The position numbers and the translations under genes were made by a program. This document shows, in pieces, positions 5,990 to 53,734 of a DNA stretch of 64,000 nt. The DNA comes from Alphaproteobacteria bacterium. Its GTDB lineage: Bacteria > Pseudomonadota > Alphaproteobacteria > RF32 > CAG-239. Position 1 is the first letter of the stretch. The number at the start of each line of letters is the position of its first letter. The notes below the pieces were generated by a model. The model saw only the letters and a program-made list of their open reading frames with translations. It had not been told where the DNA came from and did no database searches. The stretch is taken from positions 954-64,953 of the forward strand of contig JAFUYI010000009.1 of NCBI GenBank assembly GCA_017470585.1, given 5' to 3'.

Positions 5990-5992
5990 TTT

Positions 5993-8138: not shown

Positions 8139-8389
8139 TTTACATTATTTATTTTTTATGCTAGGGTGGATTTGAAGTGAGCGAAAAGTCACTTTGAGGT
8201 GTGATAGCCTCTCTTATGGTGTCTAAACAAGACATAAAATTGCTTCTAACCGTACTATGGTTGGAAGGTAGGGGAATATAAAGAATACCTTACACTGTTC
8301 CATAAGACAGCTATCAACTTCCAACCACCTCGCGGGTTTTAATGCCCAAAAGGTGGTTTTTTATAACTTTAGTAAAGGAAGTTTTTGTG
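8139..8389 (+). promoter_or_regulatory. Promoter (-35 TTTACA, 17-bp spacer, -10 TAGGGT) plus ~215-nt structured 5' leader of paralog 1
   Basis: Same element as upstream of all nine paralogs: P1 hairpin AAGTGA/TCACTT, P2 GAGG/CCTC, long-range helix ggttggaag/cttccaacc enclosing P3a GTAGGG/CCTTAC, then terminator-like CCACCT...AGGTGG + U-run before RBS aaggaag. Confidence 0.6.
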
Positions 8390-17457: not shown

Positions 17458-18426
17458 TTAAGTTACCTCGGTTACGGCGCGCAAGTTGCCGTCACGGTTG
17501 ATTTGAACCACCCTTAATTTATGGTGCATCTCCTCAATTGTCTTGCGTCTGTCCAAAGTCGGATAGGAGTGCAAAATACGATCAACAAACGCCTCGTACG
17601 CCGCACTGGAACTTTCGGCGTGGATGGTTGCCAAGCAGTTATCGTGACCTGATCCCATCAGCTCCCATAAAGCTCCGGCGTTTCCGGTTGAAATCTCACC
17701 TCCGATAATCGCATCCGGAGTAAAACGAACCACCAAGTCAATAATTCCTTTATAATCGAACTGGTTGGTCTGTCCGGTACGCGACATTACGATATGAACA
17801 CGATTAGGGTGCGGAACCAAAAGTTCCCGCGCATCCTCAATCGTTATAACGCGTTTATGAATGTCCAAAATTTTCAACAAGTTGTTCAAAAAGGTGGTCT
17901 TACCGGTTGCAGTCGCACCGCTGACCAGAATATGATCACCCCTTTTAATACTCAACAGCAGCCGTTCATACGGATCATCGGGGTCTTTAATATTCTTCAA
18001 CGGGTTAATTTGGTGCAATTTTTCACCCTGTTTCAAACCGTAATCCCCCAAACCGAACGCCACATCATCGCTATGAACACGGATAGCTATAGCAACACCG
18101 CCGGTAATATCGCCTTCATCGTACATCACGTTTTTACCGCAGATTGCCGAAAAACGATGTTCCCCGGGAATAGTGGCATAAACCACCGGCGTTCCCGAAA
18201 CCGGATCAAACGGCAGTTCATAGGTATTGGCAACGATATAAAGTAAATCAGTCAAGTACTCCTTGCTTAATTTTTCATCTTTATACATCACCCACGGATA
18301 CGCCCTTTTGCCGCGCAGTCGGAGCCATACCTGCCCGGAGCGGTTAATGGCAACCTCTTCAATGCCTTCTTGGTTGTACCAGTATGCCAACGGGCGAAGA
18401 ACCGATTCCAATACTTCAAAACTCAT
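17458..18426 (-). CDS. virB11: T4SS ATPase VirB11/TrbB family
   Basis: 322 aa; Walker A SGATATGKTTFLN, Walker B/His box; T2SS-E/VirB11 family. Confidence 0.9.
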   Translation of the reverse strand: MSFEVLESVLRPLAYWYNQEGIEEVAINRSGQVWLRLRGKRAYPWVMYKDEKLSKEYLTDLLYIVANTYELPFDPVSGTPVVYATIPGEHRFSAICGKNVMYDEGDITGGVAIAIRVHSDDVAFGLGDYGLKQGEKLHQINPLKNIKDPDDPYERLLLSIKRGDHILVSGATATGKTTFLNNLLKILDIHKRVITIEDARELLVPHPNRVHIVMSRTGQTNQFDYKGIIDLVVRFTPDAIIGGEISTGNAGALWELMGSGHDNCLATIHAESSSAAYEAFVDRILHSYPTLDRRKTIEEMHHKLRVVQINRDGNLRAVTEVT

Positions 18427-22755: not shown

Positions 22756-25700
22756 TTCCTCCGATTTTTAGCAACTTCCTGCAACGCATATCCGGCAACT
22801 CTCTTATCCAAATTGATAAACGAGCCGTTACTCTTCAGATAGCCGATGACTTTATTTTCGGTATCAATCACCATACCGTTGGCGTTTAATCTTCCGACAT
22901 AACGTCCGGTATTGCTCAATACCGTTGCACCGATTTTATAAATACGTCCCAAAATTCCCTCATTGGCATCAAGAGCCAAATCGGTTGAAAGACTGCGTCC
23001 GACAACCGCGCCGCCACTGTCAACAACCGAACCGTCGGCGGCAATATAGCCGACAACTTTATCTTCGCTGTTAATCACCAAGTCGCCGTCAACCACTTCG
23101 CCGATTAAACGTCCCGAACTGTTCAAAACATTGCCATCCGACAAAGCTCTGCCGATATTGATATTCAAAACATCCAAAACTTCGCCGTCGGGCATAACCG
23201 AACCGATAACTTTACCCGAAAAATCAATCACCGCGCCGCGTTTTAATAAACTCAAATTCTTATCGGTTGAACCGCCCGGAAGAATCGCAGTGATATTCTT
23301 GCCGTTCAAATCAATAACATCCCCCAATGAATTGATATGCCCTTTATAATTGCCCCAAACGTCAACCACGATTTCCTCGCCGATAACTTCGCCGACAATC
23401 GCTGATTTGTTATTCAAAGCCTTGCCGTCCGGAGTACTGCGTCCCACGGTTTTGCCGTCCAAATCAATGATTTTGCCGTCCGAGAGGCTGTAGCCCAAAA
23501 AAGAACCGTCATATCCTATTGCCGCACCGCGTTTAACCACGCCGCCTTTTACAACGCCCTGTTTGTCAAAATAATAACCTTTGGCATCTAAACGCCCCAG
23601 TTTCTCACCGAAACGATTGACAACCTCATTATTATATCCGACCATACCGATGACCTTGCCGGCAAAATCAATGACTTGACCTCGCAAAGCCGTAAATCCC
23701 GGCTTGCGGTTATAAAAGGCTGTTCCGTCCCCGTAAAACTTGCCGGCGGAAACTCCTTTGCCGTCATATACATTGCCGTCCGGGAACAAACGCCCGATAA
23801 CAGAACCTTTGTAATCAACTATTGTCGTCTTGGAAGGCATTGCCACACCGATAATTTTAGAGTTTTCATCAATTACGACATTATGAGCCAAAAGCCGTCC
23901 CGACGACTGCCCGCGGATAGGAACTCTGGCATTGGAATTAACCATATTCAGGAAGTTGCCTTCCAAATCATAAGCGTAAAGATTTTCCAAAACCCTGCCC
24001 AAATACGCGCCTTTTTTATCAAAAACATCTCCGTAAGTACCTACACATCCGACGGCTTGCCCCTGCGGTGATAAAACCAGACCGTTTTCCTCAACTTTGC
24101 CCAAGAAATTGCCGTCATAGGAAACCGCAATCCCCGAACGAGCCACACCGCCGATAATATCGCCTTTTTCATCCAAAACCGTACCATCAGGATTGACACA
24201 TCCGACATAGCTGCCGTTTTGGCGCACGATTCCGTCGGTTTCAACTTCACCGATTTTGGTACATGTATCATCAAAAACCGGTCCCAAAGTTACAACTTCG
24301 CCGATGTATTCTCCGGTATCGTCAATAATCACTCCGTCCGCATTGACTTTGTATTTCGTGGTGATATTTGCGGCCTTAATTGTGCCGTCTTTTTCAAGAT
24401 AGCCGATATTTTTGCATCCCTGTCCTACAACCAATCCTCCGCGGACAAGACGGGCGACAATCGTGGAACCGCTAGGGCTTTTAACCATACCGTTTGACTG
24501 TACGCGTCCGACAATCTGCTTGGCATCGTTTTCAACTGTTCCGTTATTGTTGACTTTACCCAAAACTTTACCCTGCGGAGTAATCGGAATCATCTGTTCT
24601 TGAATCAAACGTCCCAAAACATTCTGCGTATTATTGATAACTTGTCCGTTTTCATCAACATAGCCTATGACATTGCCTTCGGTATCAAAAACTTCTCCGT
24701 CCCGTCCGACATACCCCATAATCTTGCTGTTTTTATCCAGCAAAACATTGGCAAATCCGCCGACTTCGCCGATTTCATTGCCATCATTATCAACAATTTT
24801 TCCCGAGGGCATAAGCTTACCGATGGCATCGCCGTTGAAATTGACCACATTGCCGTTTTCATCGACATATCCCATAACGTTACCGTTTTTATCGTACGCC
24901 AACTGGCGCGACATTAACCCCGCTTGTCCGATAATTTGACCGTTTTCATCAACAATTGTACCGTCATCAAGCATTTTACCGATAATCTGACCGGAAAAAT
25001 CAACTACGTTACCATCTTCATCAACATAGCCGATAATATTGCCGTCCTTGTCATAGGCAAGACGTTTATTTGATCCGCCGTCGAGCTTACCGATAACATT
25101 TCCGAAAGCATCTATTATTGTGCCGTCATCTTTAAGCGAACCGATTTTCTTACCGTTATCACCGAAGACATTACCGTTTTCGTCAACATAGCCCATAACT
25201 TTGCCGTTCTTATCGTATGCCAAACGAAGATTATTGCCCTCGGTTGATTGTTTGGTTTTACCGATTACACGACCGTTTTTATCAACCACCGCTCCATCGG
25301 CACGGACTTTACCTATAACTTTGCCGTCATTGCCGATAACCTGACCGTCTTTGTCAACATAGCCGATAACTTTTCCGTTCTCATCGTATGCCAAGCGCGC
25401 AGCTTTGCTTTTGCCGGTCTTGCCGATTATTTTACCGTTTTCATCAATAATCTTACCATCAGCACGAACCCGTCCGATAATTTCACCATCGCTGCCTATG
25501 ACATTTCCGTTATCGTCAACATAGCCGATAACTTTCCCGTTTTCATCGTATGCCAAGCGAGCGGATTTAGAAGAAGCTTTCTTGGCTTTACCGATTATAT
25601 TTCCGTTTTCATCAATAACATTGCCGTTTTCATCTTTGCGCCCGATTACTTCGCCGTCAAAATTATAAACGTTGCCGTCTTCACCGACATAGCCTATAAT

Positions 25701-28250
25701 ATTGCCGTTTTCATCGTATGCAAGCTCATTTTTGCCCGATACACCGATAACATTACCGTTTTCATCGACAATCAAACCGTCCTCATTACGATGACCTATA
25801 ACTTCACCGTCAAAATTGCGGACATTACCGTTTTCATCAACATAGCCTATGACATTGCCGTTCTCATCGTATGCAAGCTCATTTTTGCCCGATACACCGA
25901 TAACATTACCGTTTTCATCAACAATCAAGCCGTCTTCATTGACACGACCGATTACCTCTCCGTCAAAATTATAAACATTGCCGTCCTCTCCGACGTATCC
26001 TATAACATTGCCGTTTTCATCATACACAAGTTCGTCACGAGAAGATGAGCCTATCACCTGTCCGTTTTCATCAACAATTGTACCGTCGGCATTAAGCTTG
26101 CCTATCTGCTTGCCGGTAAAATCATAAACATTGCCGTTTTCATCAATGTAACCGATAACATTGCCATCATTATCGTATGCCAAACGTTGCACCGGAGCCT
26201 TACCGATTATATTGCCGTCCTCATCTACGACATTTCCCTCATCATCAACACGGCCTATGATTTTGCCGTTAAAATCAACCACATTGCCGGCATCATCAAC
26301 ATAACCGATAATATTGCCATTATCATCGTATGCGACTTTTTGTTTTGAGGACATTCCTATAATATTGCCGTCATCATCAACAATTAACCCATCGGAACGC
26401 ATATGCCCGATTTTATTGCCGGCAAAATCATAAACATTGCCGTTTTCATCGATATAACCGATGACTCGACCATCTTTATCGTACGCCAAACGTTGCCCGG
26501 GAGCCATACCGATAACTTCACCGTTTTCATCTACAATCAAGCCTTCTTCATTTACCTGCCCGATGACATTGCCTTTCAAATCGTGCACTATGCCGTTGTC
26601 ATCAACATAACCGATAACGTGTCCGTCTTTATCGTAAGCCCAGCTTGATACTTTGGAATCAACATCACCCTCCGGTGCGGCACGTCCTATGATGTTGCCT
26701 TCTTCATCGATCAACATCCCGTTTTCAGCCATAATGCCGAGCTTTTTACCGCCCTCACCGATAACATTGCCGTTTTCATCAATGTAGCCGATAACGTGTC
26801 CGTCATTATCATAAGCCAATAACGCTCCCGAAGCCGTTAATTCGTTGCCGTCGTTATCAACGATTTTACCGTCGGGACGAGTGCGTCCGATAACATTGCC
26901 ATGAAAATCACGAACAGTTCCGTCATCATCAACATAGCCTACAACCTGTCCGTCCTTATTATAGACCATGCGCCGCGATATGCTCTTACTCGGAAGATTC
27001 TTATCAGCTATAACATTGCCGTCTTTATCAACACGTCCGACGACCTCACCGTTGGCATCGACCACCGTACCGTCAGGCATAACCACGCCGATAATGTTAC
27101 CGTCTTCATCAACCGCCACCCTTCCGGTTTTGGTAACATGACCGATAACCTGCCCGTTTTCATCTACGACTTCGCCTTTTTCATTGAGTCTGCCGATAAC
27201 TTGTCCGTTTTCATCAACCACTGTACCGTCCGGCATAACCCTGCCGATAATATTGCCGTCATCATCATAGACATATCCCATATCAACGGCATGACCGATG
27301 ATCGAACCGTTGGCATCAACCACCGTACCGTCAGGCATCATCTGTCCGATAACATTACCGTTTAAGTCAACGACACTGCCATCAGGATTGACATAACCTA
27401 TAACATTGCCGGAATCATCATAAACAAGCTTTCGGTTATTGGCAACACCGATAATGTTACCCTCACCGTCAACCACAAGACCGTTTTCGTTTACTCTTCC
27501 GATAACGTTACCGTTGGCATCATAGACATACCCTTCATCGTCGGCATAGCCGATAACCGAGCCGTCCGGCCCCACGATTGAACGTGAACGCGGCGATGCG
27601 CCTTTGGCGTTCTTTGATGCAACCGCCGCTCCGCCCAAATTGGTATCACAGAAATTGCAGTCCTCTTTGGTAACAGCATTGCCGTAAACGGGAACTTTCT
27701 CGGATTTGGCATTGGCTTGAGTTACGTTGCTCTCATGCCATGAAATGATAAAATTATTCTGCACATTGCCGGTTACAACCGGAACCCAGCTCATGGTAAC
27801 ATCACAGGTTTCCTTACCGCGCAGAACTTTACCGCTGCATTGATCATTGAATTTAAATCCGTCAAACGGTGTTTCCGCAAGCTGCACGGTCAAAATTGCC
27901 ACCGAGGCTTTACCGTTGGTGCCAATAGTTAAAACATTTTTAGCATCAGAACCGATAATCACCTGCCCCAAAGCGACAGGATTGGGAGTTGTGGTAATCG
28001 GCGGAACCCCCTCATCAACAGTACTGAACTCAATGCTTTCCTCTTGGGGAGCGGATTGAGTAACCACGTTTAGAGGATCGTCGTTGGAGGTAAACACCGG
28101 CTCGCTGTATTCGCTGATTTGATCATCACTTGAAAACAACAAATACAATCCGATGACAAAAATAACAAAAGAAGTTATACCAACCGCAAGAATTATGCGG
28201 TTGGTTTTTTTGATATAACTTTCAGAATGTGTTAAAACTTCTTTACTCAT
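22752..28250 (-). CDS. Giant membrane-anchored tandem-repeat protein (~1832 aa), same repeat type as the VirB10 N-terminus; translationally coupled between virB9 and virB10
   Basis: ORF 22752-28271. The likely start MSKEVL is at 28248-28250, forming an ATGA overlap with the virB9 stop. N-terminal TM helix (ILAVGITSFVIFVIGLYLLF), a ~190-aa non-repeat domain, then about 70 copies of DxxGNVIGYVDENGNVxDxxGxVIG-type repeats to the C-terminus. The stop overlaps the virB10 start (ATGA). Confidence 0.7.
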   Translation of the reverse strand: MSKEVLTHSESYIKKTNRIILAVGITSFVIFVIGLYLLFSSDDQISEYSEPVFTSNDDPLNVVTQSAPQEESIEFSTVDEGVPPITTTPNPVALGQVIIGSDAKNVLTIGTNGKASVAILTVQLAETPFDGFKFNDQCSGKVLRGKETCDVTMSWVPVVTGNVQNNFIISWHESNVTQANAKSEKVPVYGNAVTKEDCNFCDTNLGGAAVASKNAKGASPRSRSIVGPDGSVIGYADDEGYVYDANGNVIGRVNENGLVVDGEGNIIGVANNRKLVYDDSGNVIGYVNPDGSVVDLNGNVIGQMMPDGTVVDANGSIIGHAVDMGYVYDDDGNIIGRVMPDGTVVDENGQVIGRLNEKGEVVDENGQVIGHVTKTGRVAVDEDGNIIGVVMPDGTVVDANGEVVGRVDKDGNVIADKNLPSKSISRRMVYNKDGQVVGYVDDDGTVRDFHGNVIGRTRPDGKIVDNDGNELTASGALLAYDNDGHVIGYIDENGNVIGEGGKKLGIMAENGMLIDEEGNIIGRAAPEGDVDSKVSSWAYDKDGHVIGYVDDNGIVHDLKGNVIGQVNEEGLIVDENGEVIGMAPGQRLAYDKDGRVIGYIDENGNVYDFAGNKIGHMRSDGLIVDDDGNIIGMSSKQKVAYDDNGNIIGYVDDAGNVVDFNGKIIGRVDDEGNVVDEDGNIIGKAPVQRLAYDNDGNVIGYIDENGNVYDFTGKQIGKLNADGTIVDENGQVIGSSSRDELVYDENGNVIGYVGEDGNVYNFDGEVIGRVNEDGLIVDENGNVIGVSGKNELAYDENGNVIGYVDENGNVRNFDGEVIGHRNEDGLIVDENGNVIGVSGKNELAYDENGNIIGYVGEDGNVYNFDGEVIGRKDENGNVIDENGNIIGKAKKASSKSARLAYDENGKVIGYVDDNGNVIGSDGEIIGRVRADGKIIDENGKIIGKTGKSKAARLAYDENGKVIGYVDKDGQVIGNDGKVIGKVRADGAVVDKNGRVIGKTKQSTEGNNLRLAYDKNGKVMGYVDENGNVFGDNGKKIGSLKDDGTIIDAFGNVIGKLDGGSNKRLAYDKDGNIIGYVDEDGNVVDFSGQIIGKMLDDGTIVDENGQIIGQAGLMSRQLAYDKNGNVMGYVDENGNVVNFNGDAIGKLMPSGKIVDNDGNEIGEVGGFANVLLDKNSKIMGYVGRDGEVFDTEGNVIGYVDENGQVINNTQNVLGRLIQEQMIPITPQGKVLGKVNNNGTVENDAKQIVGRVQSNGMVKSPSGSTIVARLVRGGLVVGQGCKNIGYLEKDGTIKAANITTKYKVNADGVIIDDTGEYIGEVVTLGPVFDDTCTKIGEVETDGIVRQNGSYVGCVNPDGTVLDEKGDIIGGVARSGIAVSYDGNFLGKVEENGLVLSPQGQAVGCVGTYGDVFDKKGAYLGRVLENLYAYDLEGNFLNMVNSNARVPIRGQSSGRLLAHNVVIDENSKIIGVAMPSKTTIVDYKGSVIGRLFPDGNVYDGKGVSAGKFYGDGTAFYNRKPGFTALRGQVIDFAGKVIGMVGYNNEVVNRFGEKLGRLDAKGYYFDKQGVVKGGVVKRGAAIGYDGSFLGYSLSDGKIIDLDGKTVGRSTPDGKALNNKSAIVGEVIGEEIVVDVWGNYKGHINSLGDVIDLNGKNITAILPGGSTDKNLSLLKRGAVIDFSGKVIGSVMPDGEVLDVLNINIGRALSDGNVLNSSGRLIGEVVDGDLVINSEDKVVGYIAADGSVVDSGGAVVGRSLSTDLALDANEGILGRIYKIGATVLSNTGRYVGRLNANGMVIDTENKVIGYLKSNGSFINLDKRVAGYALQEVAKNRRN
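25000..26650. repeat. Near-identical intragenic tandem DNA repeats (~147-nt higher-order unit encoding ...VSGKNELAYDENGNVIGYVDENGNVRNFDGEVIG...)
   Basis: Protein residues ~560-900 of the giant ORF contain almost identical consecutive 47-49-aa blocks. The opposite strand yields long artefactual periodic ORFs (25248-26048, 26403-26648). Boundaries are approximate. Confidence 0.6.
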
Positions 28251-29875
28251 TGGGTTCTTACCACACTGCAAAATACACCGTTACGTCCCAATTTGCTGCA
28301 GACACCGTCGCCCTCATCAAGGGTCTTAACAGGTCCTATTCTCAAGTGGAACAGTTCTTTGCCCTGCCCGTCGGCCGGAGCATCTACCGAGAAGAACGGA
28401 TCATAGTTTTTCAAAATTTTTGAGTATTTATCGGACAAGCTGTCCCACAGATTCTCAAGGGTTTCCACATTAGCATCGGTGCCGAGTTCAATGGAGATAT
28501 TAGACCCTGCCCCATCGGCAAAACCGGAGCCGTATTTATAGCGATTTGAAAAATCACTGGCAGCAGGATCAAATTGCTGCGTATTCTGAATCCGGTGCAT
28601 CTTGGAGTAATCAAAATCACCGTTTGCTCCGTAACCGTTAGCATTTCCGGCTCCTCGTCCCGCCATAGAGTATTCGGGAACAATTACCTCACTGCCTCCG
28701 ATATTGATGTCAAACTGTCCGCTCGGGTAGTTTGCGGCATCCCCCATAACACCGGAATTAAAGTCAGGATATTCCGCCGAACCGGCTTTAATCTGCTTTC
28801 CGCCCGGTATTTTAGCACCGCGATCCCATTCTTTGGCTGTAATATCATCGGCATAGCTGACATCATCCAATCCGGCATCATCGGAACGGCGCAATTTCAG
28901 ACACACGATTCTTTTACCGTTGCGCAACACCATATCACCTATGGCTTCAACGATAATCAAACGGTTATTCGGACCTTTGGTGCGGAATCCGACCGGAACT
29001 TCCATTCTTTCCACAATCAGCGTTACAATCGGACGCTGTGTCATATTAAGCGATTTGGCTCCCAAATCAATATAAGTGAAAATATCATCCCGCCAAACAC
29101 GTTCCGGAGCAATTACAACGTCTTCCGGATGAGGAACATAAACCTCTATATCAAAACGAAATTTGGTCGGGTCAAGAGGAATATTCTCAACCCAACTGTT
29201 TTTTTGGTTACGTTTTGTAAAAGTGGAATCAACGGACTTTCCGGAATTACCGTAATATTTACTGGCATTAACGTGTGAGCCGCCGTTTCCCCCTATAGCT
29301 CCGGCTCCGCCCGATTCGGCTCCTATTACCTCAATATCCACAATCGCATTGGTAAGACGTTCGGTGTTAACCCCCTCACTTCTGGCATAGAACACATAAC
29401 GATTGCCGGAACGTCCGAATACGATAATATTGGTATCAACCCCGACATTTGCCCCTTTGCGCGGATATAAAAGCAATGTACTGGGACCTGAAATCTGTCC
29501 GTCAAAAGTGGAATTATCACCGATATAAATATCCTCAATCATCTCCCACTCGGGGAAGTTAATCATCGTAATCATACCTTCGCGCAGACGCAACGGCAAG
29601 ACCAAATCCGGCGACCAATAATATTTGGAATAAGCCGGCTTGCTCTGCCCTTCACCGAGATTCTGCAAAGGATCAAGCCATGCACTTTGCATCATCCCCA
29701 AGGAATTAAATCCGGCATAGCTCATATCCATAGGCTGGTATTGCCCTTGTGATTGATCCGCATTTTGGTCCATGCTGCTAATGGTTGCCTGTGCTTTAAC
29801 CTCTCCCGAAAACAATATCAGAAGCAGGCTTAACATACTTATTTTCATAGACTTTGATAGCATAGCTTTATCCAC
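28247..29875 (-). CDS. virB9: VirB9/TrbG-like T4SS outer-membrane core protein with C-terminal Gly-rich extension
   Basis: 542 aa; signal peptide (MKISMLSLLLILFSGEVKAQA). The central region aligns to the VirB9 C-terminal domain (VIAPERVWRDDIFTYIDLGAK...RPIVTLIVERMEVPVGFRTKGPNNRLIIVEAIGDMVLRNGKRIVCLK). An extra ~170-aa G/N-rich C-terminus ends in a SPOR-like ...FHLRIGPVKTLDEGDGVCSKL segment (weak). Confidence 0.7.
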   Translation of the reverse strand: MDKAMLSKSMKISMLSLLLILFSGEVKAQATISSMDQNADQSQGQYQPMDMSYAGFNSLGMMQSAWLDPLQNLGEGQSKPAYSKYYWSPDLVLPLRLREGMITMINFPEWEMIEDIYIGDNSTFDGQISGPSTLLLYPRKGANVGVDTNIIVFGRSGNRYVFYARSEGVNTERLTNAIVDIEVIGAESGGAGAIGGNGGSHVNASKYYGNSGKSVDSTFTKRNQKNSWVENIPLDPTKFRFDIEVYVPHPEDVVIAPERVWRDDIFTYIDLGAKSLNMTQRPIVTLIVERMEVPVGFRTKGPNNRLIIVEAIGDMVLRNGKRIVCLKLRRSDDAGLDDVSYADDITAKEWDRGAKIPGGKQIKAGSAEYPDFNSGVMGDAANYPSGQFDINIGGSEVIVPEYSMAGRGAGNANGYGANGDFDYSKMHRIQNTQQFDPAASDFSNRYKYGSGFADGAGSNISIELGTDANVETLENLWDSLSDKYSKILKNYDPFFSVDAPADGQGKELFHLRIGPVKTLDEGDGVCSKLGRNGVFCSVVRTQ

Positions 29876-29876
29876 C

Positions 29877-30605
29877 TTATTTTACTTTATTGTAACTCAA
29901 AGAATAATTCACAACCGTAAATCCGACCGGATTTTTAAGACGTTCTTTGAATTTTACGCTTTTATAACGATACATAACTTTTAGCGAGGCCGTCCAATAA
30001 TTTATCTCCGGAGTCTTGGAATCGGGATACATATCACGGGTTTCATACTCAACCTGCCATACTCCGTCGCTTAACTCGTTCACGGTCATAATCCGCACAT
30101 CGCGCATCATACGCCGCGTGCGGATAAGTTCCAAAGCCCTGCCGGCGGTGTTTTTTATAAAATCATCATACACTGCAGAGGAGGACATTTCCTGAATCGC
30201 TCCGCCCGCGCCCCATCTGGCCTCAACCTCGGGAATATCGCGGTTAAAAGAGCTGCGCATTAAAACATACTGCCGCACAAAAGCCTCGGTTATAGCTCTT
30301 TCTTCGGTTAAATTACGATTAACCGGCTGAATATTATAAACCTGCTCTTCCTTATTTTGGAACGTCATCAAAAACGGCTCGACACGATACAGCGGGATAA
30401 CCTGCAGAATCGCCAAGAGCAAAATCAGATTACAACAAAAACTAACGGCCGTAATAATAGCAAAAGCACGCGCAGTCCACAGATAGCGTTTTTCGGCAAC
30501 ATTGGCGACAAAAGCCTCATTTCCTGCCCCCGAATCGGGCTTAATGCTTTTTCCGGTCAACAGGCGTTGATTATTATTACGATTCGTCACAACGGGTGCG
30601 GGCAT
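29877..30605 (-). CDS. virB8: VirB8 family protein (paralog a)
   Basis: 242 aa; cytoplasmic N-terminus, one TM, periplasmic NTF2-like domain (...EAFVRQYVLMRSSF...WQVEYETRD...WTASLKVMYRY). Confidence 0.8.
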   Translation of the reverse strand: MPAPVVTNRNNNQRLLTGKSIKPDSGAGNEAFVANVAEKRYLWTARAFAIITAVSFCCNLILLLAILQVIPLYRVEPFLMTFQNKEEQVYNIQPVNRNLTEERAITEAFVRQYVLMRSSFNRDIPEVEARWGAGGAIQEMSSSAVYDDFIKNTAGRALELIRTRRMMRDVRIMTVNELSDGVWQVEYETRDMYPDSKTPEINYWTASLKVMYRYKSVKFKERLKNPVGFTVVNYSLSYNKVK

Positions 30606-30903: not shown

Positions 30904-31662
30904 TTATTGGAATTGTACTTCACTCTGATTATATCTTGTAACCGTAAAACCTAAAGGATTTATTAACCGACGACCGACAAAAAGACGTTCCGGGAAAAAA
31001 TATGAGGTAACGGATGCCGTCCAGTATTTAACGTTAAGAATAAGGGAGCCGGTCTCTCCGTTGCGGTTGCGCTGCGACACCTCATAAGTTTTAAAGTCAA
31101 CTTTCCACACCGGACTTTTTTTTCCGCCGACTTTGCCCACCGAAATAATTTCCACTTCTTGGCTTATTTGTTCATCAATATTGCGTTGCCAAACATTTTC
31201 CCGATATTTATTAAATTCCTCAAAAATAGGATCGCTTGATAAAAAATGAACGATTCCCCCCGGATACCAACGCGACATCATCTCCAACTGGTCGTTAATG
31301 ATGGTATTGCGGTATAAAACATATTGGCGGACAAATATCTCCATCAATTTTTCTTTTGAAGCCATATCATGAGCAATCGGTTCATAGCGAACCATATCAT
31401 CGGAATCCCTTTGATTGATAATCAAAAACGGCTCAACCGACACTCTCGGGGCAAGATTAAACAATGCCAGAGAGGCTGACAAGAATAAAGCCAAAGACAG
31501 CGTTGCCGTAAATAAGAACAATCTTGAAAGCCACATATAATAATACATCTTGGCACTGCGTTTTTCACGCTCATTCTGCCCGATAAAGCTGTATGTTTTG
31601 CCGCTTTTATCGGTTAAGACCTGAACTTTGGTTGTTTCAAGAATATTTCCTAAACTGCTCAT
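30904..31662 (-). CDS. virB8: VirB8 family protein (paralog b)
   Basis: 252 aa; TM (LFLFTATLSLALFLSASLALF) plus NTF2-like domain (...EIFVRQYVLYRNTI...WKVDFKTYE...WTASVTSYFFP). Confidence 0.75.
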   Translation of the reverse strand: MSSLGNILETTKVQVLTDKSGKTYSFIGQNEREKRSAKMYYYMWLSRLFLFTATLSLALFLSASLALFNLAPRVSVEPFLIINQRDSDDMVRYEPIAHDMASKEKLMEIFVRQYVLYRNTIINDQLEMMSRWYPGGIVHFLSSDPIFEEFNKYRENVWQRNIDEQISQEVEIISVGKVGGKKSPVWKVDFKTYEVSQRNRNGETGSLILNVKYWTASVTSYFFPERLFVGRRLINPLGFTVTRYNQSEVQFQ

Positions 31663-39302: not shown

Positions 39303-41735
39303 TCAGGCAAGATTTAAATATTTTGTAACAAAGTTTTCTTCACCATACTGCTTAATGAGGTCTTCAACCAATAAAACATTCTTACGGCTTGAGTTATAAA
39401 GCTTCAAATACGGTCCCAATCCGCCTAAATTTACATCCAAAATAACCGATTCGCCGGTTGCCGGACGGGAAAGCAGAATAGCGTACGGAAAATCACGATA
39501 CGATTTACCGAACACGAAGTCAATTTCACGCTGATTCAAGTTCCAGTTGGCATAATCTTCCGGTCTTGCTTGCGGGTTACGGAAGAAGATTACGGTTTGG
39601 CATTGACCGCGGATCACCTCTCCCACACCGAGCGAATCGATAATATTCGGTTGTTGGAAAGCACAAAGATATGCCTGTCTTTTTTTACGTCCTTCTTGTA
39701 AACCGATCATAAAGTAATCCCTGAACATCGGGTGTTTAAGCATCGGTGCGGTTTCATCAATCATAATCAAAGACGGCACACCGGTTTCTCCGGTTTCGGA
39801 TTGAATACGGTGCATAATATAGCTGATAACCGCCGGAGCCAAAGTATCATCTTCAAAAATATGCGTAAAGTCAAACGCCATAAACCGTTTGGTATGCAAA
39901 TCAAGGCTATCGCTGGCGGCGTTAAAAATTTTACCGTACTGATCGGGGTTAACCCAGCGATATAGCTCACGGCGCATATTTCCGGTCGGCGAGAAACAGC
40001 TCTTATAAAGGTTGGACATAACGCGTTCTTCAGGGCGCAGATAATCAAACGCCGTCGTAATAGCGCGGGCAATCTCACGTTCGGAAAGCGCATCATCAAC
40101 CATGGTGATTGATTTCATCCACCGCCGCAGGAAAGCCCTGTTATTCGGTGTCGGAGCGGCATCAAACGGATTTAAGGAAACATTTTTCTCATCACCGTCA
40201 AAACCGATATAGGCACCTCCGACTGCACGAGTAAAAATCTCCGCACCCAAGTGACGGTCAAAGAAAAACACTTTCAAATCTTTGTGGCGCATAGCCTGCC
40301 CTGCCAAGAATGTCAAAAGGGTTGTTTTACCTTGTCCGGTAGGTCCGATAATGCAACAGTGTGCAACGGCAGCATCTTCGGAGGAAACATGGAATTGGAA
40401 ACGATACCCCGAACCGGTGGTTGTGCGGAAAGTCGTAATCGCCCCCGGACCCCAGTCGCATTTATTAAAGCCTTCGGCGGGTTTATCAAACGACACTGCC
40501 GCCGTAACCACACGCGACAAATAGCGATAAGTCCGCGGATAGGTGTCGTATGTCGGAAATTGATTGAAAAACGTTGCTTGTGTAACCCATCCTTCTCTGA
40601 CCGGAGTTACACCGAAAAGGCGGCAAATTCTCTGCACTTCGCTTTCGGCAAATTCGATTTCCGCTTTGCTTTTACCTTTTAAGACCAACGAAAGAGAATA
40701 TTCGGTTAACGCCTGATAGTTGGCATCACTATCCTCAATTGAACTCATCGCATAATTATATTGATCAACAACTTCCTGCGAAAAGCTGGTCATACGCGCC
40801 ATGTTGCGCTGCTGAATTAAAAGCGCGCGCGCCGTGGGGCGGTATATCGGCTTAATATTGTGAAGCATTGTAAGTTCGCAATCAATTGCCAACAACGAAA
40901 CAATCATTGATTCGTCCATATAATCTCCGGGAGAACGAATCCCCATGGTTATGGCAAGAGTTTCCTCATCGCCGGAGAAAAATCTAATCATCCCGTTTTC
41001 ACCGGTAAAATGAATATGATCGGCAGTCAGCATCTCGTTTAATTGCGCCCCCTCGGCATGACCGACTTTAGGATCGGGGGTTGACACCGGCGAACAAATC
41101 CGGCTGAAAATATGAAACGGACTGTCAAGAGGTGAGCTGTCCTCACTTTCAAACATAGCACGCACACCGTATTCGCTTAAAGTAGCCAGCAATGTTTGCG
41201 AGGCGTAATTCAAATCTTTTAATGCCTCGGGACGATCGGGAACCGATATAATTATATAGTGCGAGTTACTGTAAACCCTATCAAGAGTTGACTGCCATGT
41301 ATAAGCAACTTTTTCCAAAATTTTATTATCGAAAGTATTTTCGATAACATCGGCAGGAATCCTCTCGCGCAAAGTTATTACCCGCGCCGTAACCTGCAAA
41401 TCGGACATACTGTCGAGCCAAGATTTCCTTGCCTCGGCCATGGAAACATTCTTTTCCTCCGTGGCAAACGCCAAGTCCAAACCCTCAACCTTAAAAACAC
41501 GAGCAAACGAACCGTTATAGCAACGGATGGTCATGCCGTCGGACATCAGTTTATTAAAAGGGAGAAAATCCGCAACTTTCGACTCGTTTGGCTGCGGCAA
41601 TATCGTTCGCCCGAGTTTGGTAATCCACAACCCGGCAAACGCCGCGGCAGAAATAAAACCCAACAATGTTACGATGACTTCTTTGCTGCTTAAACCCTGC
41701 ACAAAGATGTTAAAAAAATCAAAATCAGGGTGCAA
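39303..41735 (-). CDS. virB4: T4SS ATPase VirB4/TrbE/CagE family
   Basis: 810 aa; Walker A IIGPTGQGKTTLL, Walker B ...LIMIDE; N-terminal membrane-associated region. Confidence 0.9.
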   Translation of the reverse strand: MHPDFDFFNIFVQGLSSKEVIVTLLGFISAAAFAGLWITKLGRTILPQPNESKVADFLPFNKLMSDGMTIRCYNGSFARVFKVEGLDLAFATEEKNVSMAEARKSWLDSMSDLQVTARVITLRERIPADVIENTFDNKILEKVAYTWQSTLDRVYSNSHYIIISVPDRPEALKDLNYASQTLLATLSEYGVRAMFESEDSSPLDSPFHIFSRICSPVSTPDPKVGHAEGAQLNEMLTADHIHFTGENGMIRFFSGDEETLAITMGIRSPGDYMDESMIVSLLAIDCELTMLHNIKPIYRPTARALLIQQRNMARMTSFSQEVVDQYNYAMSSIEDSDANYQALTEYSLSLVLKGKSKAEIEFAESEVQRICRLFGVTPVREGWVTQATFFNQFPTYDTYPRTYRYLSRVVTAAVSFDKPAEGFNKCDWGPGAITTFRTTTGSGYRFQFHVSSEDAAVAHCCIIGPTGQGKTTLLTFLAGQAMRHKDLKVFFFDRHLGAEIFTRAVGGAYIGFDGDEKNVSLNPFDAAPTPNNRAFLRRWMKSITMVDDALSEREIARAITTAFDYLRPEERVMSNLYKSCFSPTGNMRRELYRWVNPDQYGKIFNAASDSLDLHTKRFMAFDFTHIFEDDTLAPAVISYIMHRIQSETGETGVPSLIMIDETAPMLKHPMFRDYFMIGLQEGRKKRQAYLCAFQQPNIIDSLGVGEVIRGQCQTVIFFRNPQARPEDYANWNLNQREIDFVFGKSYRDFPYAILLSRPATGESVILDVNLGGLGPYLKLYNSSRKNVLLVEDLIKQYGEENFVTKYLNLA

Positions 41736-42947: not shown

Positions 42948-43361
42948 TTATTCTGCCTGATTATAGTCAAGCAACATTTCCGCCGCTTTGGATAAAAACG
43001 CCGAACGATTGTTGGTAACCTCATCAATTCGCGACATAAGGTCATCATTCATATAAACCGTATATTTGCTAGGCTTTCCGGTTGGAACATATGAAACAAA
43101 TGCAAAAGCGTATTCTTCGTCGTCCGTCCATTCATTCCAATCCTGCCATTCATCTTTTATTTGCCCGATATTGCGCGGTTTTGGCAAAGGTTTGCCTGCC
43201 CGCCTTATATCATCAAGACGAATATTTAATATCTCTATGGCCATTTTATATGCATGATCAATATTTTCGCCACTGGTATAGCAATCCGGAATATCCGGAA
43301 AAACAACACCGACGGAACTTTTTCCCTCTTTGGGTAAGATAAATAATGCCAAGTATTTCAT
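42948..43361 (-). CDS. hicB: Type II antitoxin HicB family (second copy)
   Basis: 137 aa; MKYLALFILPKEGKSSVGVVFPDIPDCYTSGENIDHAYKMAIEILN... Homologous to the 7413-7820 product, with the same WQDW...EW motif. Confidence 0.7.
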   Translation of the reverse strand: MKYLALFILPKEGKSSVGVVFPDIPDCYTSGENIDHAYKMAIEILNIRLDDIRRAGKPLPKPRNIGQIKDEWQDWNEWTDDEEYAFAFVSYVPTGKPSKYTVYMNDDLMSRIDEVTNNRSAFLSKAAEMLLDYNQAE

Positions 43362-50654: not shown

Positions 50655-50715
50655 ACTCTCCCCTCCGATAAGGTTAATCAAATATGAGATTTTTTAAGTT
50701 TCCTAAACTTTTTGC

Positions 50716-50992
50716 TTGATTTAGAATAAAACTTATGTTATAGTTTATACTGAAGTGAGTGAAAAACCGCTTTGAGGTCTGAAAACCTCGCAATTGACGT
50801 TTATAAAGAAAAACGTAAAAATTCTTCCTGCTATAATGGTCGGAAGGCAAAGAAATAAGAGATACCTCAAATACTTTGCACTGGTTCAATTGTCAGTTTT
50901 CAGCTTCCGACCACCTCGCGGGTTTGAATACCCAAAAGGTGGTTTTCTTTTAATGTTAACAAAAAAAGAAAATTATAAAGGAAGTAAGAAAG
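50716..50992 (+). promoter_or_regulatory. Promoter (-35 TTGATT, 17 bp, -10 TATAGT with upstream TG) plus structured leader of paralog 6
   Basis: P1 AAGTGA/CCGCTT (with U-G wobble), P2 GAGG/CCTC, outer helix ggtcggaag/cttccgacc, P3a GCAAAG/CTTTGC, inner hairpin CTGgttcaattgtCAG, terminator CCACCTcgcgggtttgaatacccaaaAGGTGG + ttttctttt (50911-50952). The last ~88 nt are identical to the paralog 7 leader. Confidence 0.6.
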
Positions 50993-51523
50993 ATGAAAAA
51001 TTATATTTTAATGCTCGGGGTTGCAGGAGTTGCGCTTGGCTCATATTGCGCCTGCGCGGGCAACTCGGCGACAATGACCGTTACCGCCACAATCGCGCAT
51101 GATGTGAGTTTGACCAAAACCGGTGATTTAGACCTTGGCACAATCACCATCAACCCAGCGTATGAGGAAAGCGATACATATTGGAGTTACGGCTATTCGG
51201 GGATAGTCAATTATGAAGGAGCAGTCATTTCTGCCTCCAATGCGACCCTCGGTACTTTTACCGCCAATATCTCCAATCCTTCCGCTTGCAGTAATGCATA
51301 TGAATCTTGCGGAGGTTTGATGGTTTCCGGAAATAACGGAGAGACTATTGACAACTTCTTTGGAGGGAGCGATAATAGCAATTATTGCCAATTTTTTATT
51401 AAGTACAGCGGAGCAGATAATAACTTTAAGGTGTTTCCTAATGAATGTGGTATATATGATGTTTCCAAAGTCACCACCGGCGAACACTCCGGCACTTTGA
51501 CTATATCTTATAATCCTGAATAA
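50993..51523 (+). CDS. Secreted beta-rich protein, paralog 6
   Basis: 176 aa; prototype of the family: signal peptide, NSATMTVTATIAHDVSLTKTGDLDLGTITINPA, GTFTANISNPSACSNAYESCGGL, NYCQFFIKYSG, NFKVFPNECGIYDVSKVTTGEHSGTLTISYNPE. Confidence 0.8.
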   Translation: MKNYILMLGVAGVALGSYCACAGNSATMTVTATIAHDVSLTKTGDLDLGTITINPAYEESDTYWSYGYSGIVNYEGAVISASNATLGTFTANISNPSACSNAYESCGGLMVSGNNGETIDNFFGGSDNSNYCQFFIKYSGADNNFKVFPNECGIYDVSKVTTGEHSGTLTISYNPE

Positions 51524-51540
51524 CAAATTAAAAACGAATC

Positions 51541-51580
51541 GGGCGGAGGGGAAATTTTGTTCTCCGCCCGAAGTTTATTT
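51541..51580 (+). terminator. Rho-independent terminator after paralog 6
   Basis: gggcggaggggaaattttgttctccgcccg + aagtttatttt. Confidence 0.6.
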
Positions 51581-51710
51581 TATTAAGCAAGAAAATTAAC
51601 CTTTTTACCGCCTAATTTTTCCCAAATATCGCCTCCGTAATTAAAAAAAATTTATGTAATTTTAATTTTTATTATGTTATAAAATAATTGTTTTGAAAAA
51701 AGGCTGATTT

Positions 51711-52823
51711 ATGGAAAAAGATCCCTTCAAAGAATATCTTCGCCAATCCGAACCCGGCAAGCGTGATAAGAGTTATGCTTGGAATACCGCTATCGGTTTG
51801 CAAGATGTTGATGGACTAAAGACTTCGGAATACTTAAAAGATACCGCAATCAAAAATATTGAAGGTGACATTACCATTGATGAAGCGCAAACACTGCTTA
51901 ACACCTATTATAAAGAAAACAATCAAAAAAACAAAAAAGACCGAACCGAAGAAGCCGATAAAGTTTCCCTCCGAATTGCAAAGATTTTATCGGAAAAGGC
52001 TTTCAGTTTTTCTGCAAATGAGTATATTTCCATTCATAAGAAACTGTTTGACGGTATCTATGATTATGCTGGCCGCTTTCGCGATTATAATATTACCAAA
52101 AAAGAATGGGTATTAGACGGAGATACCGTTATTTATGGAACAGCCACTGAATTAAAAGCTACATTGGACTACGATATTTCGCAGGAAAAGAAATTTAATT
52201 ATAAAGGTCTGTCCCCTCAAGAGATTATACATCATTTGGCTTTGTTTATTTCCGGATTGTGGCAAATTCATGCTTTTGGCGAAGGCAACACCAGAACAAC
52301 CGCAGTATTTTTTATCAAATACTTGCGAACTCTGGGTTTTGATGTCACAAATGATATTTTTGCTCATAATTCATGGTATTTCAGAAATGCGCTTGTTCGG
52401 GCAAATTATACCGATTTAACAAGAAATATTCATTCAACCACGGAATATTTAGAGTTGTTTTTAGAAAATCTGTTGTTGGGCAAGAATCACAAACTGCTTA
52501 ACCGAATGATGCATATAAGTCATATATTGGATAGAAAAGTAGATATTGAAGCTTCAAAAGTAGATATTCGGGCTTCAAAAGTAGATATTGAATATCTATG
52601 TCGCGAAAGATTACCGAACATCACAACCAAATCTATCCGGCATATTTTGAAGATTTATGAGACATGTAGTAACACCCGACATTTTGGTCGCAGTGAGATT
52701 ATTGAAATCACAAATCTCAAACCCGCTATGGCTTCAAGGCTACTCAAACTTCTTTTAGACAATGGAATCATTAGGCCTATACAGGGCAAAGGTAAAGGTA
52801 AATATATTTTTGCCATTGGATAA
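51711..52823 (+). CDS. Fic/DOC family protein with non-canonical active-site motif and C-terminal wHTH
   Basis: 370 aa; Fic motif region IHAFGEGNTRTTAVF (canonical HPFx[DE]GNGRxxR is degenerate here). A short tandem peptide repeat SKVDIEASKVDIRASKVDIE lies near the C-terminus. Confidence 0.65.
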   Translation: MEKDPFKEYLRQSEPGKRDKSYAWNTAIGLQDVDGLKTSEYLKDTAIKNIEGDITIDEAQTLLNTYYKENNQKNKKDRTEEADKVSLRIAKILSEKAFSFSANEYISIHKKLFDGIYDYAGRFRDYNITKKEWVLDGDTVIYGTATELKATLDYDISQEKKFNYKGLSPQEIIHHLALFISGLWQIHAFGEGNTRTTAVFFIKYLRTLGFDVTNDIFAHNSWYFRNALVRANYTDLTRNIHSTTEYLELFLENLLLGKNHKLLNRMMHISHILDRKVDIEASKVDIRASKVDIEYLCRERLPNITTKSIRHILKIYETCSNTRHFGRSEIIEITNLKPAMASRLLKLLLDNGIIRPIQGKGKGKYIFAIG

Positions 52824-52912
52824 TTTTCGCCATAAACAGACCATCAAAATTGCGGAATGATAACGAAAAAGAACAAAAAACTTAAATTTTTTTTGTAATA
52901 TAAACTTTTTGC

Positions 52913-53188
52913 TTGATTTCGAGTAAAATTTATGTTATAGCTTATACTGAAATGAATAAAAAGTCATTTTGGGGTGTAGGAACCTTTTGTAAAGCGTCAG
53001 CAAAGACGTAAAATTTGCTTTCAGCCGTTGCTATGGTTGGAAGGTGTGGAAATAAGGTTTAGCCGAATACCACGCACTGTACTTTACAACAGTTCCTAAC
53101 TTCCGACCACCTCGCGGGTTTGAATACCCAAAAGGTGGTTTTCTTTTAATGTTAACAAAAAAAGAAAATTATAAAGGAAGTAAAGAAT
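52913..53188 (+). promoter_or_regulatory. Promoter (-35 TTGATT, 17 bp, -10 TATAGC) plus structured leader of paralog 7
   Basis: P1 AAATGA/TCATTT (compensatory relative to AAGTGA/TCACTT), P2 GGGG/CCTT (wobbles), outer helix ggttggaag/cttccgacc, P3a GTGTGG/CCACGCAC, inner hairpin CTGTacttta...cAACAG, terminator CCACCT...AGGTGG + ttttctttt. Confidence 0.6.
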
Positions 53189-53734
53189 ATGAAAAAATAT
53201 ATTTTAATGCTCGGCGTTGCAGGGGTTGCACTTGGTTCTTATTGTGCAATGGCCTCCAATTCTGCCACAATGACCGTTACCGCAACAATAGCCCACGATG
53301 TGAGTTTGAGTGTTACTCAAGATATAGATATGGGAACAATCACTGTCAATCCGGCTGTAACAGATAATACGAAATGGTCTTATAACGAAACCGGTGAACT
53401 TTATAATACTGATGGTATAGGCATCATTTCCGCAGATAATGTTACAGCCGGCATTTTTAGTGCTAACATTGCTAATCCCTCTGCTTGCAATAAGGCATAT
53501 CGTGAATGCGGAGGATTGAGCGTTACCGGAAATACTGTATTCGAAGGCAGAACTTGGTCATCTATTAGTAATCTCTTTGGCGAAAACAATGATAACGGTT
53601 GCGATTTTTTTATTCAGTACAGCGGAACAGAAAACACTTTTAAGGTTTTCCCTTATTCTTGTGGAGCAACTATGTCCACCACTACCATCGGTTCGCATTC
53701 TGGAACTTTAACTATCAGCTACAATCCGGAATAA
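53189..53734 (+). CDS. Secreted beta-rich protein, paralog 7
   Basis: 181 aa; conserved termini and four Cys; variable centre. Confidence 0.8.
   Translation: MKKYILMLGVAGVALGSYCAMASNSATMTVTATIAHDVSLSVTQDIDMGTITVNPAVTDNTKWSYNETGELYNTDGIGIISADNVTAGIFSANIANPSACNKAYRECGGLSVTGNTVFEGRTWSSISNLFGENNDNGCDFFIQYSGTENTFKVFPYSCGATMSTTTIGSHSGTLTISYNPE

Follow-up and report, generated by a model that had tools for sequence, protein, structure and literature searches.

The window, meaning the whole 64-kb stretch of DNA that was analysed, contains nine copies of a structured leader, all on the + strand, and each precedes a paralogous gene, with the downstream ATGs located at 8390, 11870, 16874, 42369, 43928, 50993, 53189, 58910, and 60093. 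Column identity across the nine aligned leaders is 67-72%. A covariance model, R1, was trained on these nine leaders and used to scan both strands of the 64 kb. Exactly nine matches, with scores of 125-207 bits, were found on the + strand only, and these are the same nine places at which an earlier note on this DNA had proposed a leader. The copies other than copy 6, which is divided into its parts below, are as follows.

8174..8363, + strand: leader copy 1, R1, 205 bits
11648..11840, + strand: leader copy 2, R1, 207 bits
16655..16872, + strand: leader copy 3, R1, 125 bits
42138..42331, + strand: leader copy 4, R1, 164 bits
43710..43897, + strand: leader copy 5, R1, 179 bits
52949..53145, + strand: leader copy 7, R1, 200 bits
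58681..58878, + strand: leader copy 8, R1, 169 bits
59863..60052, + strand: leader copy 9, R1, 200 bits

The order of elements is the same in each copy: a -35 box, a 17-nt spacer, a TG-extended -10 box, approximately 200 nt of conserved sequence, a G+C-rich hairpin, a U-run, the ribosome-binding site (RBS) AAGGAAG, and the ATG. The sigma70-like promoter that had been described before each paralog was found in all copies examined, with the -35 and extended -10 boxes conserved upstream of 37 copies. Two of the earlier measurements require correction. The transcribed leader, from the -10 box to the ATG, is approximately 240 nt and not 215 nt in length, and the U-run does not lie a few nucleotides before the RBS but is separated from it by an A/T-rich spacer of 20-40 nt. 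The two ends of the copy 6 unit are located as follows.

50716..50744, + strand: promoter of copy 6, -35 TTGATT, 17 nt, TG and -10 TATAGT; 9/12 match
50978..50995, + strand: RBS AAGGAAG and ATG (50993) of paralog 6

Judged from the position of this promoter, the copy 6 transcript should start a few nucleotides upstream of 50752. Inspection of the regions upstream of the copies showed no room for a second promoter in the 20-40 A/T-rich nucleotides between U-run and RBS, and because no promoter fits there, expression of the gene needs read-through of the hairpin. A TAYTAT word is conserved upstream of the strand named e below. An internal promoter at this -10-like word was considered and rejected, no -35 box being present at a usable spacing.

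The gene family and its distribution

The encoded paralogs are 157-181 aa long. Their N-terminal 40 residues, composed of a signal peptide and NSATMTVTATIAHDVSL, are near-invariant, and outside this region the identity is only 35-42%. No Pfam match was found for these pilin-like secreted proteins. A beta-sandwich was predicted for the family protein by AlphaFold (pLDDT 86.9), with a disordered, invariant N-terminal extension. It is reasonable but unproven that the family represents a variable repertoire of secreted pilin-like subunits with a common donor-strand-like N-terminus. The leader probably governs the whole repertoire of this variable surface-protein family.

A rumen metagenome-assembled genome (MAG) labelled "Alphaproteobacteria bacterium" contains a protein, IJ689_01495, identical to that of copy 6. 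The family matches 232 clusters at 90% identity; at 50% identity, a library of 1.84 billion representatives contains only 82 matching clusters. Among the 120 matches listed, at least 83 carry IJ689_ tags, and a second subfamily with a different N-terminus contributes 38 additional IJ689_ proteins. This one MAG has at least 121 paralogs, and nearly all of those sampled carry the leader. The highest locus tag, 07975, suggests a genome of about 1,600 genes, and on the basis of locus tags the leader would stand in front of about 8% of the genes of one uncultured rumen alphaproteobacterium.

Leaders were further sought in 16 contigs taken from related rumen MAGs, where the covariance model, a search that the earlier note had suggested, recovered 29 additional copies with scores of 96-210 bits. 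Wherever downstream sequence was at hand, a family gene lies directly 3' of the leader, and no family gene with sufficient upstream sequence lacks a leader. Two family genes have a divergent leader which scores only about 22 bits with R1. A scan of genome contigs with the protein alignment pointed to one rumen MAG, RGIG4925 (roe-deer), as the sole source. A scan of JGI metagenomes with a back-translated N-terminal pattern gave 0 matches; a scan of metagenomes with an RNA pattern gave 48 matches, all of which were rejected by the covariance model, as well as 2 viral matches at the level of the pattern only. A few rumen MAGs are the only genomes in which the leader was detected. In the window, the leader-gene units have housekeeping genes as neighbours, and resolvase, toxin-antitoxin, and methylase genes lie nearby. 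The host bacterium also carries a Rickettsiales-type type IV secretion system.

Two mutually exclusive folds of the leader

A single fold had been proposed for the leader by the earlier note, consisting of P1, P2, an outer helix, P3a, and an inner hairpin. All of these helices are real and covary, and together they represent one of two exclusive folds; the pairings a/a', b/b', c/c', and d/e were missed, and regions that had been called loops are paired long-range through b/b' and c/c'. The parts of copy 6 are listed here in 5' to 3' order.

50752..50773, + strand: P1, 5'-terminal hairpin GAAGUGA / CCGCUUU, present in both folds; double compensatory changes in 5/7 pairs, 12 distinct sequences
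50774..50789, + strand: strand a GAGGU (50774-50778), bulge x (50779), strand b (50780-50786), and CUC (50787-50789)
50790..50797, + strand: strand c, hypervariable, GCAAUUGA; partner in fold X is c' (50886-50893), double changes in 8/8 pairs
50797..50816, + strand: Px, variable local hairpin ACGUUU / AAACGU, from the sequence and minimum-free-energy folds
50823..50831, + strand: strand d, UCUUCCUGC, putative anti-antiterminator, pairs with e in fold X
50838..50846, + strand: strand e, GGUCGGAAG, 5' strand of the outer helix; partner is d (fold X) or e' (fold Y)
50847..50879, + strand: P3a hairpin GCAAAG / CUUUGC, present in both folds; double changes in 6/6 pairs, 100% pair, 17 distinct stems
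50881..50896, + strand: inner hairpin of fold Y, CUGG / UCAG, with c' (50886-50893) as its loop; 100% paired, double changes in 2/4 pairs
50896..50912, + strand: b' (50896-50902), a' GCUUC (50903-50907), and e' CUUCCGACC (50904-50912)
50909..50951, + strand: terminator-like hairpin, lower stem GACCACCU / AGGUGGUU, 3x3 internal loop, upper stem GGGU / ACCC, U-run at 50943-50951

Strand b, which had been taken as the 7-nt loop of P2, is complementary to b', which immediately precedes the 3' strand of the outer helix, and the 8 nt located 3' of P2 (strand c) are complementary to c', previously the loop of the inner hairpin. According to RNAalifold and reading of the sequence, a (GAGGU) with a' (ACUUC), b with b', and c with c' together form a 20-bp interrupted long-range helix. 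In addition, strand d (e.g. CUUCUAACC) is complementary to strand e (GGUUGGAAG), the 5' strand of the outer helix. Fold X therefore consists of P1, a/a', b/b', c/c', Px, d/e, P3a, and the terminator, with a paired to a' and b to b'. Fold Y consists of P1, P2 (GAGG/CCUC), in which a is paired with the local CCUC, and the outer helix e/e', inside which lie P3a and the inner hairpin. The GGA-containing words, for which CsrA-type binding had been offered as an option, appear to be explained by these alternative pairings.

The two folds are mutually exclusive because a' and e' share CUUC, because e has two partners, and because c' cannot at the same time be a hairpin loop and the partner of c. H-type pseudoknots in place of alternative folds were considered by reasoning on the geometry. 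Coexistence of the inner hairpin with c/c' was rejected as impossible, and the two are kept as exclusive since no connecting loop could span 8 bp. P2 together with b/b' is sterically possible as a pseudoknot.

Pair counts were made on 37 distinct copies of a 38-copy alignment which had been fitted to fold X, the fold-Y-specific helices being absent from the aligning model; Px was left out of the formal counts because its region was misaligned by MAFFT. The counts are not phylogenetically independent, since all copies are paralogs from a small number of closely related rumen MAGs. In fold X, 96.6% of the 1862 cells pair and both sides have changed in 36/51 pairs, with none of 500 shuffles as good. 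For fold Y, 99.1% of cells pair, double changes occur in 17/30 pairs, and again 0/500 shuffles are as good. When the 3' partner was slid by 1-3 columns as a control, pairing fell to 37-50% for fold X and to 35-49% for fold Y. Both folds are also upheld on a plain MAFFT alignment of the nine window copies, where 99.3% of the fold Y cells pair, with double changes in 15/30 pairs and 0/500 shuffles as good. The covariation claimed earlier is thus recovered both by RNAalifold and by pair counts.

Individual helices show how pairing is kept while the sequence changes. Strand b has 24 distinct sequences in 37 copies and is complementary to b' in 36 of them; strand c has 34 and is complementary to c' in 35, with positions 2-8 fully paired. 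The d/e helix of 7-9 bp is present in 37/37 copies, d occurring in more than 10 forms which are kept paired by G-U/A-U/G-C exchanges. The outer helix e/e' reads GGAUG/CAUCC in place of GGAAG/CUUCC in one copy and shows U-A to C-G changes at two positions; in the divergent leader class it reads GGGAG/CUCCC, and there d (UCUGGG) and the long-range partner (GGAG...CUCC) match as well. The lower stem of the terminator covaries across the 37 copies as well. P2 and a/a' show only one-sided (wobble) changes. The b' and c' strands are unpaired in a near-duplicate copy on contig L009, which may be an assembly chimera.

Conservation is distributed according to the number of partners. Strands with two partners (a, CUC, e, and a'/e') are near-invariant, with entropies of 0.06-0.34 bits, and strands with a single partner (b, c, b', c', and P3a) are hypervariable, with 1.0-1.6 bits; a has 0.13, CUC 0.06, and b 1.04 bits. 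CUC is the most invariant segment of the leader although it is an unpaired internal loop in fold X, and this invariance indicates that P2 matters. Taken from the comparative sequences, these patterns argue that both folds are under selection.

The same data bear on whether the leader could be a constitutive structured 5' UTR without switching, in which P1 and fold X would have a role in protection or processing of the mRNA and the helices of fold Y would be co-transcriptional intermediates or chance GAGG-/CCUC-like complementarity. Thermodynamically, fold X is clearly the ground state; P2 and the inner hairpin, both short, are the earliest to form during transcription; and many strands resemble a Shine-Dalgarno (SD) or anti-SD sequence and pair promiscuously. 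This explanation is nevertheless considered improbable. The e/e' helix keeps double compensation (GGAUG/CAUCC, GGGAG/CUCCC, and U-A to C-G at two positions), and it cannot be a folding intermediate because e' is made last. The pairs of the inner hairpin covary independently of c/c': alignment column 162 is always paired in the inner hairpin and unpaired within c/c' in 9/37 copies. CUC is invariant yet unpaired in fold X, and a strong terminator before every gene would have no purpose without regulation.

Selection at the DNA level is the remotest of the explanations considered. A mobile palindromic repeat or recombination site, attC-like or invertase-related and travelling with a gene cassette, would have long inverted repeats in which the sequence is hypervariable and the symmetry conserved, as in integron attC. 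The mosaic composition of the leaders, in which copy 6 and L010:12924 have c in common but not b, and the resolvase, toxin-antitoxin, and methylase genes nearby would also be in keeping with it. However, G-U pairs are abundant (23 in P3a, 46 in P1, and many in d/e), and each of these would be a C-A mismatch on the opposite strand. The covariance model matches one strand only, and position and orientation are fixed relative to promoter, terminator, and gene. An integron attC-like site in particular was rejected: the core words stand in reverse order compared to attC R''/R', they do not keep to GTTRRRY, and G-U pairs are frequent. Both this frequency of G-U pairs and the restriction of the covariance model to one strand argue for selection at the RNA level, as had been suggested from wobble pairs in single copies.

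Terminator, energetics, and the proposed switch

In 37/37 copies the leader ends in a hairpin of -14 to -21 kcal/mol followed by UUUUUU or UUUUCUUU, and this arrangement, as far as sequence can tell, bears out the attenuator-like architecture suggested before. The CCACCT...AGGTGG end that had been assigned to every leader is present in 7/9 window copies, the exceptions being copy 3 (GCTGCA/TGCAGC) and copy 5 (CCCCCT/AGGGGG). The hairpin and U-run would be expected to terminate transcription. A simple terminator scanner made no call on the copy 6 hairpin, which it misses because an internal loop interrupts the stem.

The lower stem of the terminator (e.g. AACCACCU/AGGUGGUU) starts inside e', and its first 4-5 nt are also part of the outer helix. 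Together with the pair U97-A182, e/e' occupies 5 nt of the lower stem, which is 8 bp long; in most copies the overlap is only 4-5 nt. Alone, the terminator has a mean of -17.2 kcal/mol; once the 10-bp outer helix is formed, a residual hairpin averaging -7.8 kcal/mol is left, with a gap of 5 nt between its end and the U-run. In two copies, L011:9775 and copy 3, the whole terminator 5' strand is taken up by the outer helix, and in copy 3 a 12-bp outer helix reaches through the full 5' strand (GCUGCA) of a different terminator.

The folding energy of copy 6 is -64.1 kcal/mol, compared to -41.1 +/- 4.7 for dinucleotide shuffles (z = -4.9). For the full leader, the structure of minimum free energy combines fold X with the terminator. 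Fold Y is less stable by about 8 kcal/mol before the terminator and by about 13 kcal/mol in the full leader. By this calculation fold Y, 8-13 kcal/mol above fold X, would need a stabiliser or a kinetic route. Folding of successive prefixes showed that P2, Px, d/e, and P3a form earliest and that c/c' forms once c' is available. In 27/37 copies of the prefix folding, a pairs with CACCUC, the 5' strand of the terminator, before the 3' strand is made, and this pairing is possible in 34/37 copies. Competition of the anti-antiterminator type is present in all copies through d/e, and a/a' competes for the CUUC of e'.

These observations are best accommodated, with somewhat better than even confidence, by a cis-acting attenuator of competing terminator, antiterminator, and anti-antiterminator helices which is off by default. 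Each paralog would be transcribed from its own sigma-70-type promoter, and the first ~200 nt would take one of the two exclusive folds. In fold X, the predicted ground state, the a/a', b/b', and c/c' helix would enclose Px, d/e, and P3a; d would hold e and a would hold CUUC, so that the full hairpin and U-run could form and transcription would stop before the RBS. In fold Y, P2, the inner hairpin, and a 9-10 bp e/e' helix closing a three-way junction would form. This e/e' helix would consume the first 4-5 nt of the terminator stem and leave a weak hairpin too far from the U-run, which should permit read-through. A second, transient antiterminator may be formed by a (GAGGUG) and CACCUC of the terminator before the terminator 3' strand exists. 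A cellular signal would presumably shift the balance between the folds.

The presence of a promoter and a terminator in each element also raises the question of an independent ~195-nt sRNA, running from promoter to terminator and acting in trans or as a decoy, with the paralog expressed by leakage or uncoupled from it. More than 100 similar short transcripts per cell would then result, and one copy weakly resembles the architecture of sRNA-Xcc1. It is doubtful, however, that the leader is such an RNA. It always lies on the same strand as, and directly 5' of, a family gene, and a second promoter does not fit. A search of about 290 kb from the same genomes gave no third-party complement for the variable strands, and a free sRNA would need no antiterminator and anti-antiterminator centred on its own terminator.

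Control by a metabolite or second messenger is less improbable than a free sRNA, and is still considered unlikely. In this case a junction would serve as the aptamer, either the three-way one of fold Y or the multi-helix one of fold X, and the ligand would control termination by shifting the balance of X and Y. A bistable fold is coupled to a terminator, and the helix that closes the junction overlaps the terminator 5' strand, as in ON-type purine riboswitches. The AAUA...AAUA motifs are conserved at the apex of P3a, and cyclic-dinucleotide riboswitches typically target pilin and adhesin genes. Nevertheless, no known class in Rfam 15 corresponds to the leader, and none of the regulated genes serves metabolism or transport. 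Fold Y has junction strands of 0, 1, and about 7 nt, of which the 7-nt strand (b') is hypervariable, and the junction of fold X differs between copies; with strands this short or variable, no metabolite pocket is evident. The conserved unpaired bases are instead located in apical loops, namely the P1 loop and the P3a tip with its AAUA motifs (AAAUAAG and CAAAUA), and the small hairpin at that tip is missing in about 40% of copies. The small-molecule riboswitch that had been put forward as a candidate finds no specific pointer in these features.

For the attenuator, a trans-acting macromolecule is favoured, with low certainty, over a metabolite as the trigger, because the junction strands are unconserved and the regulated genes form a surface-protein repertoire. 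The best candidate features for recognition are AAUA...AAUA at the P3a tip, the P1 loop, and the SD-like strand a, and candidate triggers are an RNA-binding protein at the apical AAUA motifs or a ribosome or RNA at strand a. A leader peptide was rejected: the only recurrent AUG (alignment column 96, 33/37 copies) opens ORFs of 4-38 codons without an SD. Translational control through pairing of e' or d with the SD was not supported, many d variants being without CUUC and the copy with CAUCC in e' having a non-compensatory SD, GGACG.

A search of ~290 kb of the same MAGs, on both strands and with up to 2 mismatches, returned as partners of the variable strands only the strands themselves and paralogous leaders. 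The b and c helices might, as a speculative and rather improbable extension, be locus-specific barcodes in a genome-wide RNA switch that chooses among more than 120 pilin-like surface proteins. Paralogs would then be switched by locus-specific RNA-RNA contacts (with other leaders, terminated fragments, or a selector RNA) or by their own kinetically tuned read-through. If this were true, it would constitute an RNA-based system for repertoire or antigenic variation.

If confirmed, the leader would be an undescribed RNA family in which both states of a switch are recorded in comparative data. The natural paralogs provide dozens of compensatory "mutants" for each helix and thereby an unusually clean system for bistable RNA folding. 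The trigger, once found, would reveal how a host-associated bacterium controls such repertoires at the level of RNA.

Comparison with known systems

In Rfam 15, no family reached its gathering score in the window and no riboswitch family matched the leaders at E<=1, in agreement with the novelty suggested before. T-box (RF00230) was not matched in any Rfam search of the window or leaders. The only resemblance, to sRNA-Xcc1 (RF02221), was rejected: copy 6 scored 34.1 bits against a gathering score of 53, and part of this score came from the hypervariable b' strand. The other eight window copies gave no sRNA-Xcc1 match at E<=1, and neither did three copies on contigs L001, L002, and L009 at E<=5. 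sRNA-Xcc1 is an integron-cassette RNA found upstream of symE in Xanthomonas (bioRxiv 10.1101/2025.06.18.660453). It is similar to the leader in having, within about 85 nt and upstream of a gene, a 9-bp GC-rich closing helix (GGNCGG.../...CCGNCC then ACC) around two hairpins. It differs in context, as the leader is associated with neither an integron nor symE and has pilin-like genes downstream.

Antiterminators of the ANTAR and RAT types have characteristic hairpins. ANTAR sites consist of two tandem hexaloop hairpins, and the RAT of CAT-domain proteins is a ~29-nt hairpin overlapping the terminator. Both were rejected for the leader, whose fold Y hairpins have loops of 14-25 nt and 8-9 nt and not hexaloops. 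GEMM-I/II cyclic-di-GMP riboswitches precede pilin and adhesin genes and are multi-copy in some genomes, and they share with the leader the repetition of a cis-regulatory leader before many surface-structure genes of one genome. Compared to GEMM-I/II, the leader has no Rfam match in sequence or structure, its copy number is far higher (at least 121 paralogs in one MAG), and it is confined to one protein family. The ON-type pbuE adenine riboswitch is similar in its three-way junction with two side-by-side hairpins and in a closing helix whose 3' strand is shared with the 5' strand of the terminator, so that formation of the junction is predicted to give read-through. In contrast to pbuE, the leader has no Rfam match and unconserved junction strands, and its alternative fold is an elaborate covarying structure and not a simple extension of the terminator.

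A likeness in logic is also seen with three-tier attenuators such as pyr/PyrR and trp of B. subtilis and trp of E. coli (1:2 / 2:3 / 3:4). In these as in the leader, four successive strands (here d, e, e', and the terminator 3' strand) pair alternately, and the default, for the leader a predicted one, is termination before the coding region. Unlike them, the leader is without a leader peptide, and no repeats like PyrR or TRAP sites were seen by eye. It also adds a second layer, the a-b-c helix which competes for CUUC, and its overlap with the terminator is mostly only 4-5 nt. As in intrinsic attenuators generally, a G+C-rich hairpin with a U-run lies between promoter and start codon and is accompanied by a putative antiterminator helix and a putative anti-antiterminator. 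The leader belongs to no curated family and, as predicted from its sequence, would function like the classical multi-helix attenuators and like ON-type three-way-junction riboswitches such as pbuE. It is unusual in that both conformers covary, that it precedes more than 100 genes in one genome, and that its single-partner helices are hypervariable.

Word composition of the proposed leader switch

The leader switch is, in its entirety, composed of interchangeable purine-rich and pyrimidine-rich words. As seen in copy 6, Shine-Dalgarno-like sequence occurs both in strand a, the 5' part of the long-range helix of fold X (UGAGGUC/G, window 50774-50779), and in the 3' strand of the terminator (AAGGUGG, 50937-50942). 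The terminator 5' strand, CCACCUC (50911-50917), is similar to the 16S rRNA 3' end, and the real ribosome-binding site (50980-50984) is copied by strand e (GGAAG). Additionally, all copies keep a -10-like hexamer (TACTAT, TATTAT or TATAAT) in the hairpin loop that joins d to e (columns 92-97 of the leader alignment A7; 50832-50837 in copy 6), directly 5' of strand e. No -35 element is found at usable spacing from this hexamer, which may serve as a site of pausing or recognition.

Divergence among leader copies

Within the region 50690-53200, a Fic-domain gene (51711-52823) separates copies 6 and 7. The two copies share nearly identical promoters and identical spacers 3' of their terminators, whereas helices b, c and P3a differ completely between them. 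Therefore, either the helices outpace their flanks in divergence, or recombination shuffles the helices.

Beyond the window, a second, divergent leader class was found 5' of two subfamily-B genes on contigs of related rumen MAGs, scoring about 22 bits with R1, the covariance model built from the nine window leaders. This class has the same architecture as the main class, but its sequences differ:

Members and elements of the divergent leader class
L006:9752-9985, + strand, leader
L011:3301-3521, - strand, leader
Strands e, e' and d: CCCGGGAG, CUCCCGG and UCUGGG
Long-range helix: ends in GGAG/CUCC
Terminator: GACACCUCG/CGAGGUGUC

Two other leaders, L009:270-456 and L008:9785-9971, come from different samples and agree exactly in strands b and c. 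In the former, other sequence stands in place of the 3' strands b' and c', and pairing is lost. The L009 leader may have arisen as a chimera during assembly, or it may be a natural recombinant in which fold X is broken.

Genomic setting and the regulated family

Some paralogs in the window are adjoined by mobile- or defence-type genes (9100-11447 and 42948-43361), and a type IV secretion cluster resembling the Rickettsiales vir homologs occupies 17458-41735 on the - strand. The presence of this cluster suggests a host-associated lifestyle of the bacterium.

Mobile- or defence-type genes and type IV secretion genes in the window
9100-10830, C-5 cytosine DNA methylase
10827-11447, - strand, serine resolvase
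17458-18426, - strand, VirB11
18439-22755, - strand, VirB10/TrbI with many fused beta-flower repeats
22752-28271, - strand, YD-repeat protein (1839 aa)
28247-29875, - strand, VirB9/CagX
29877-30605, - strand, VirB8, first of two genes
30904-31662, - strand, VirB8, second of two genes
39303-41735, - strand, VirB4
42948-43361, - strand, HicB antitoxin

Elsewhere in the window, a weak, sub-threshold DicF-like match (5990-6028, + strand; 27.3 bits, where the gathering score is 48) coincides with a GC-rich hairpin in the junction between an accA-like and an rmuC-like ORF of the - strand, and is probably no more than a terminator-like stem.

The leader-regulated family (window 50993-51523 and eight other paralogs; proteins P0001-P0228) reaches at least 121 paralogs within a single genome, the rumen MAG IJ689, and is very narrow in nature: a library of 1.84 billion representatives yields 82 matching clusters at 50% identity. 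Its proteins combine an invariant N-terminal 40 aa with a variable beta-sandwich that contains Cys. Faint DUF4402/SCPU signals are present in distant relatives, and chaperone-usher pilins are weak fold matches to the family.
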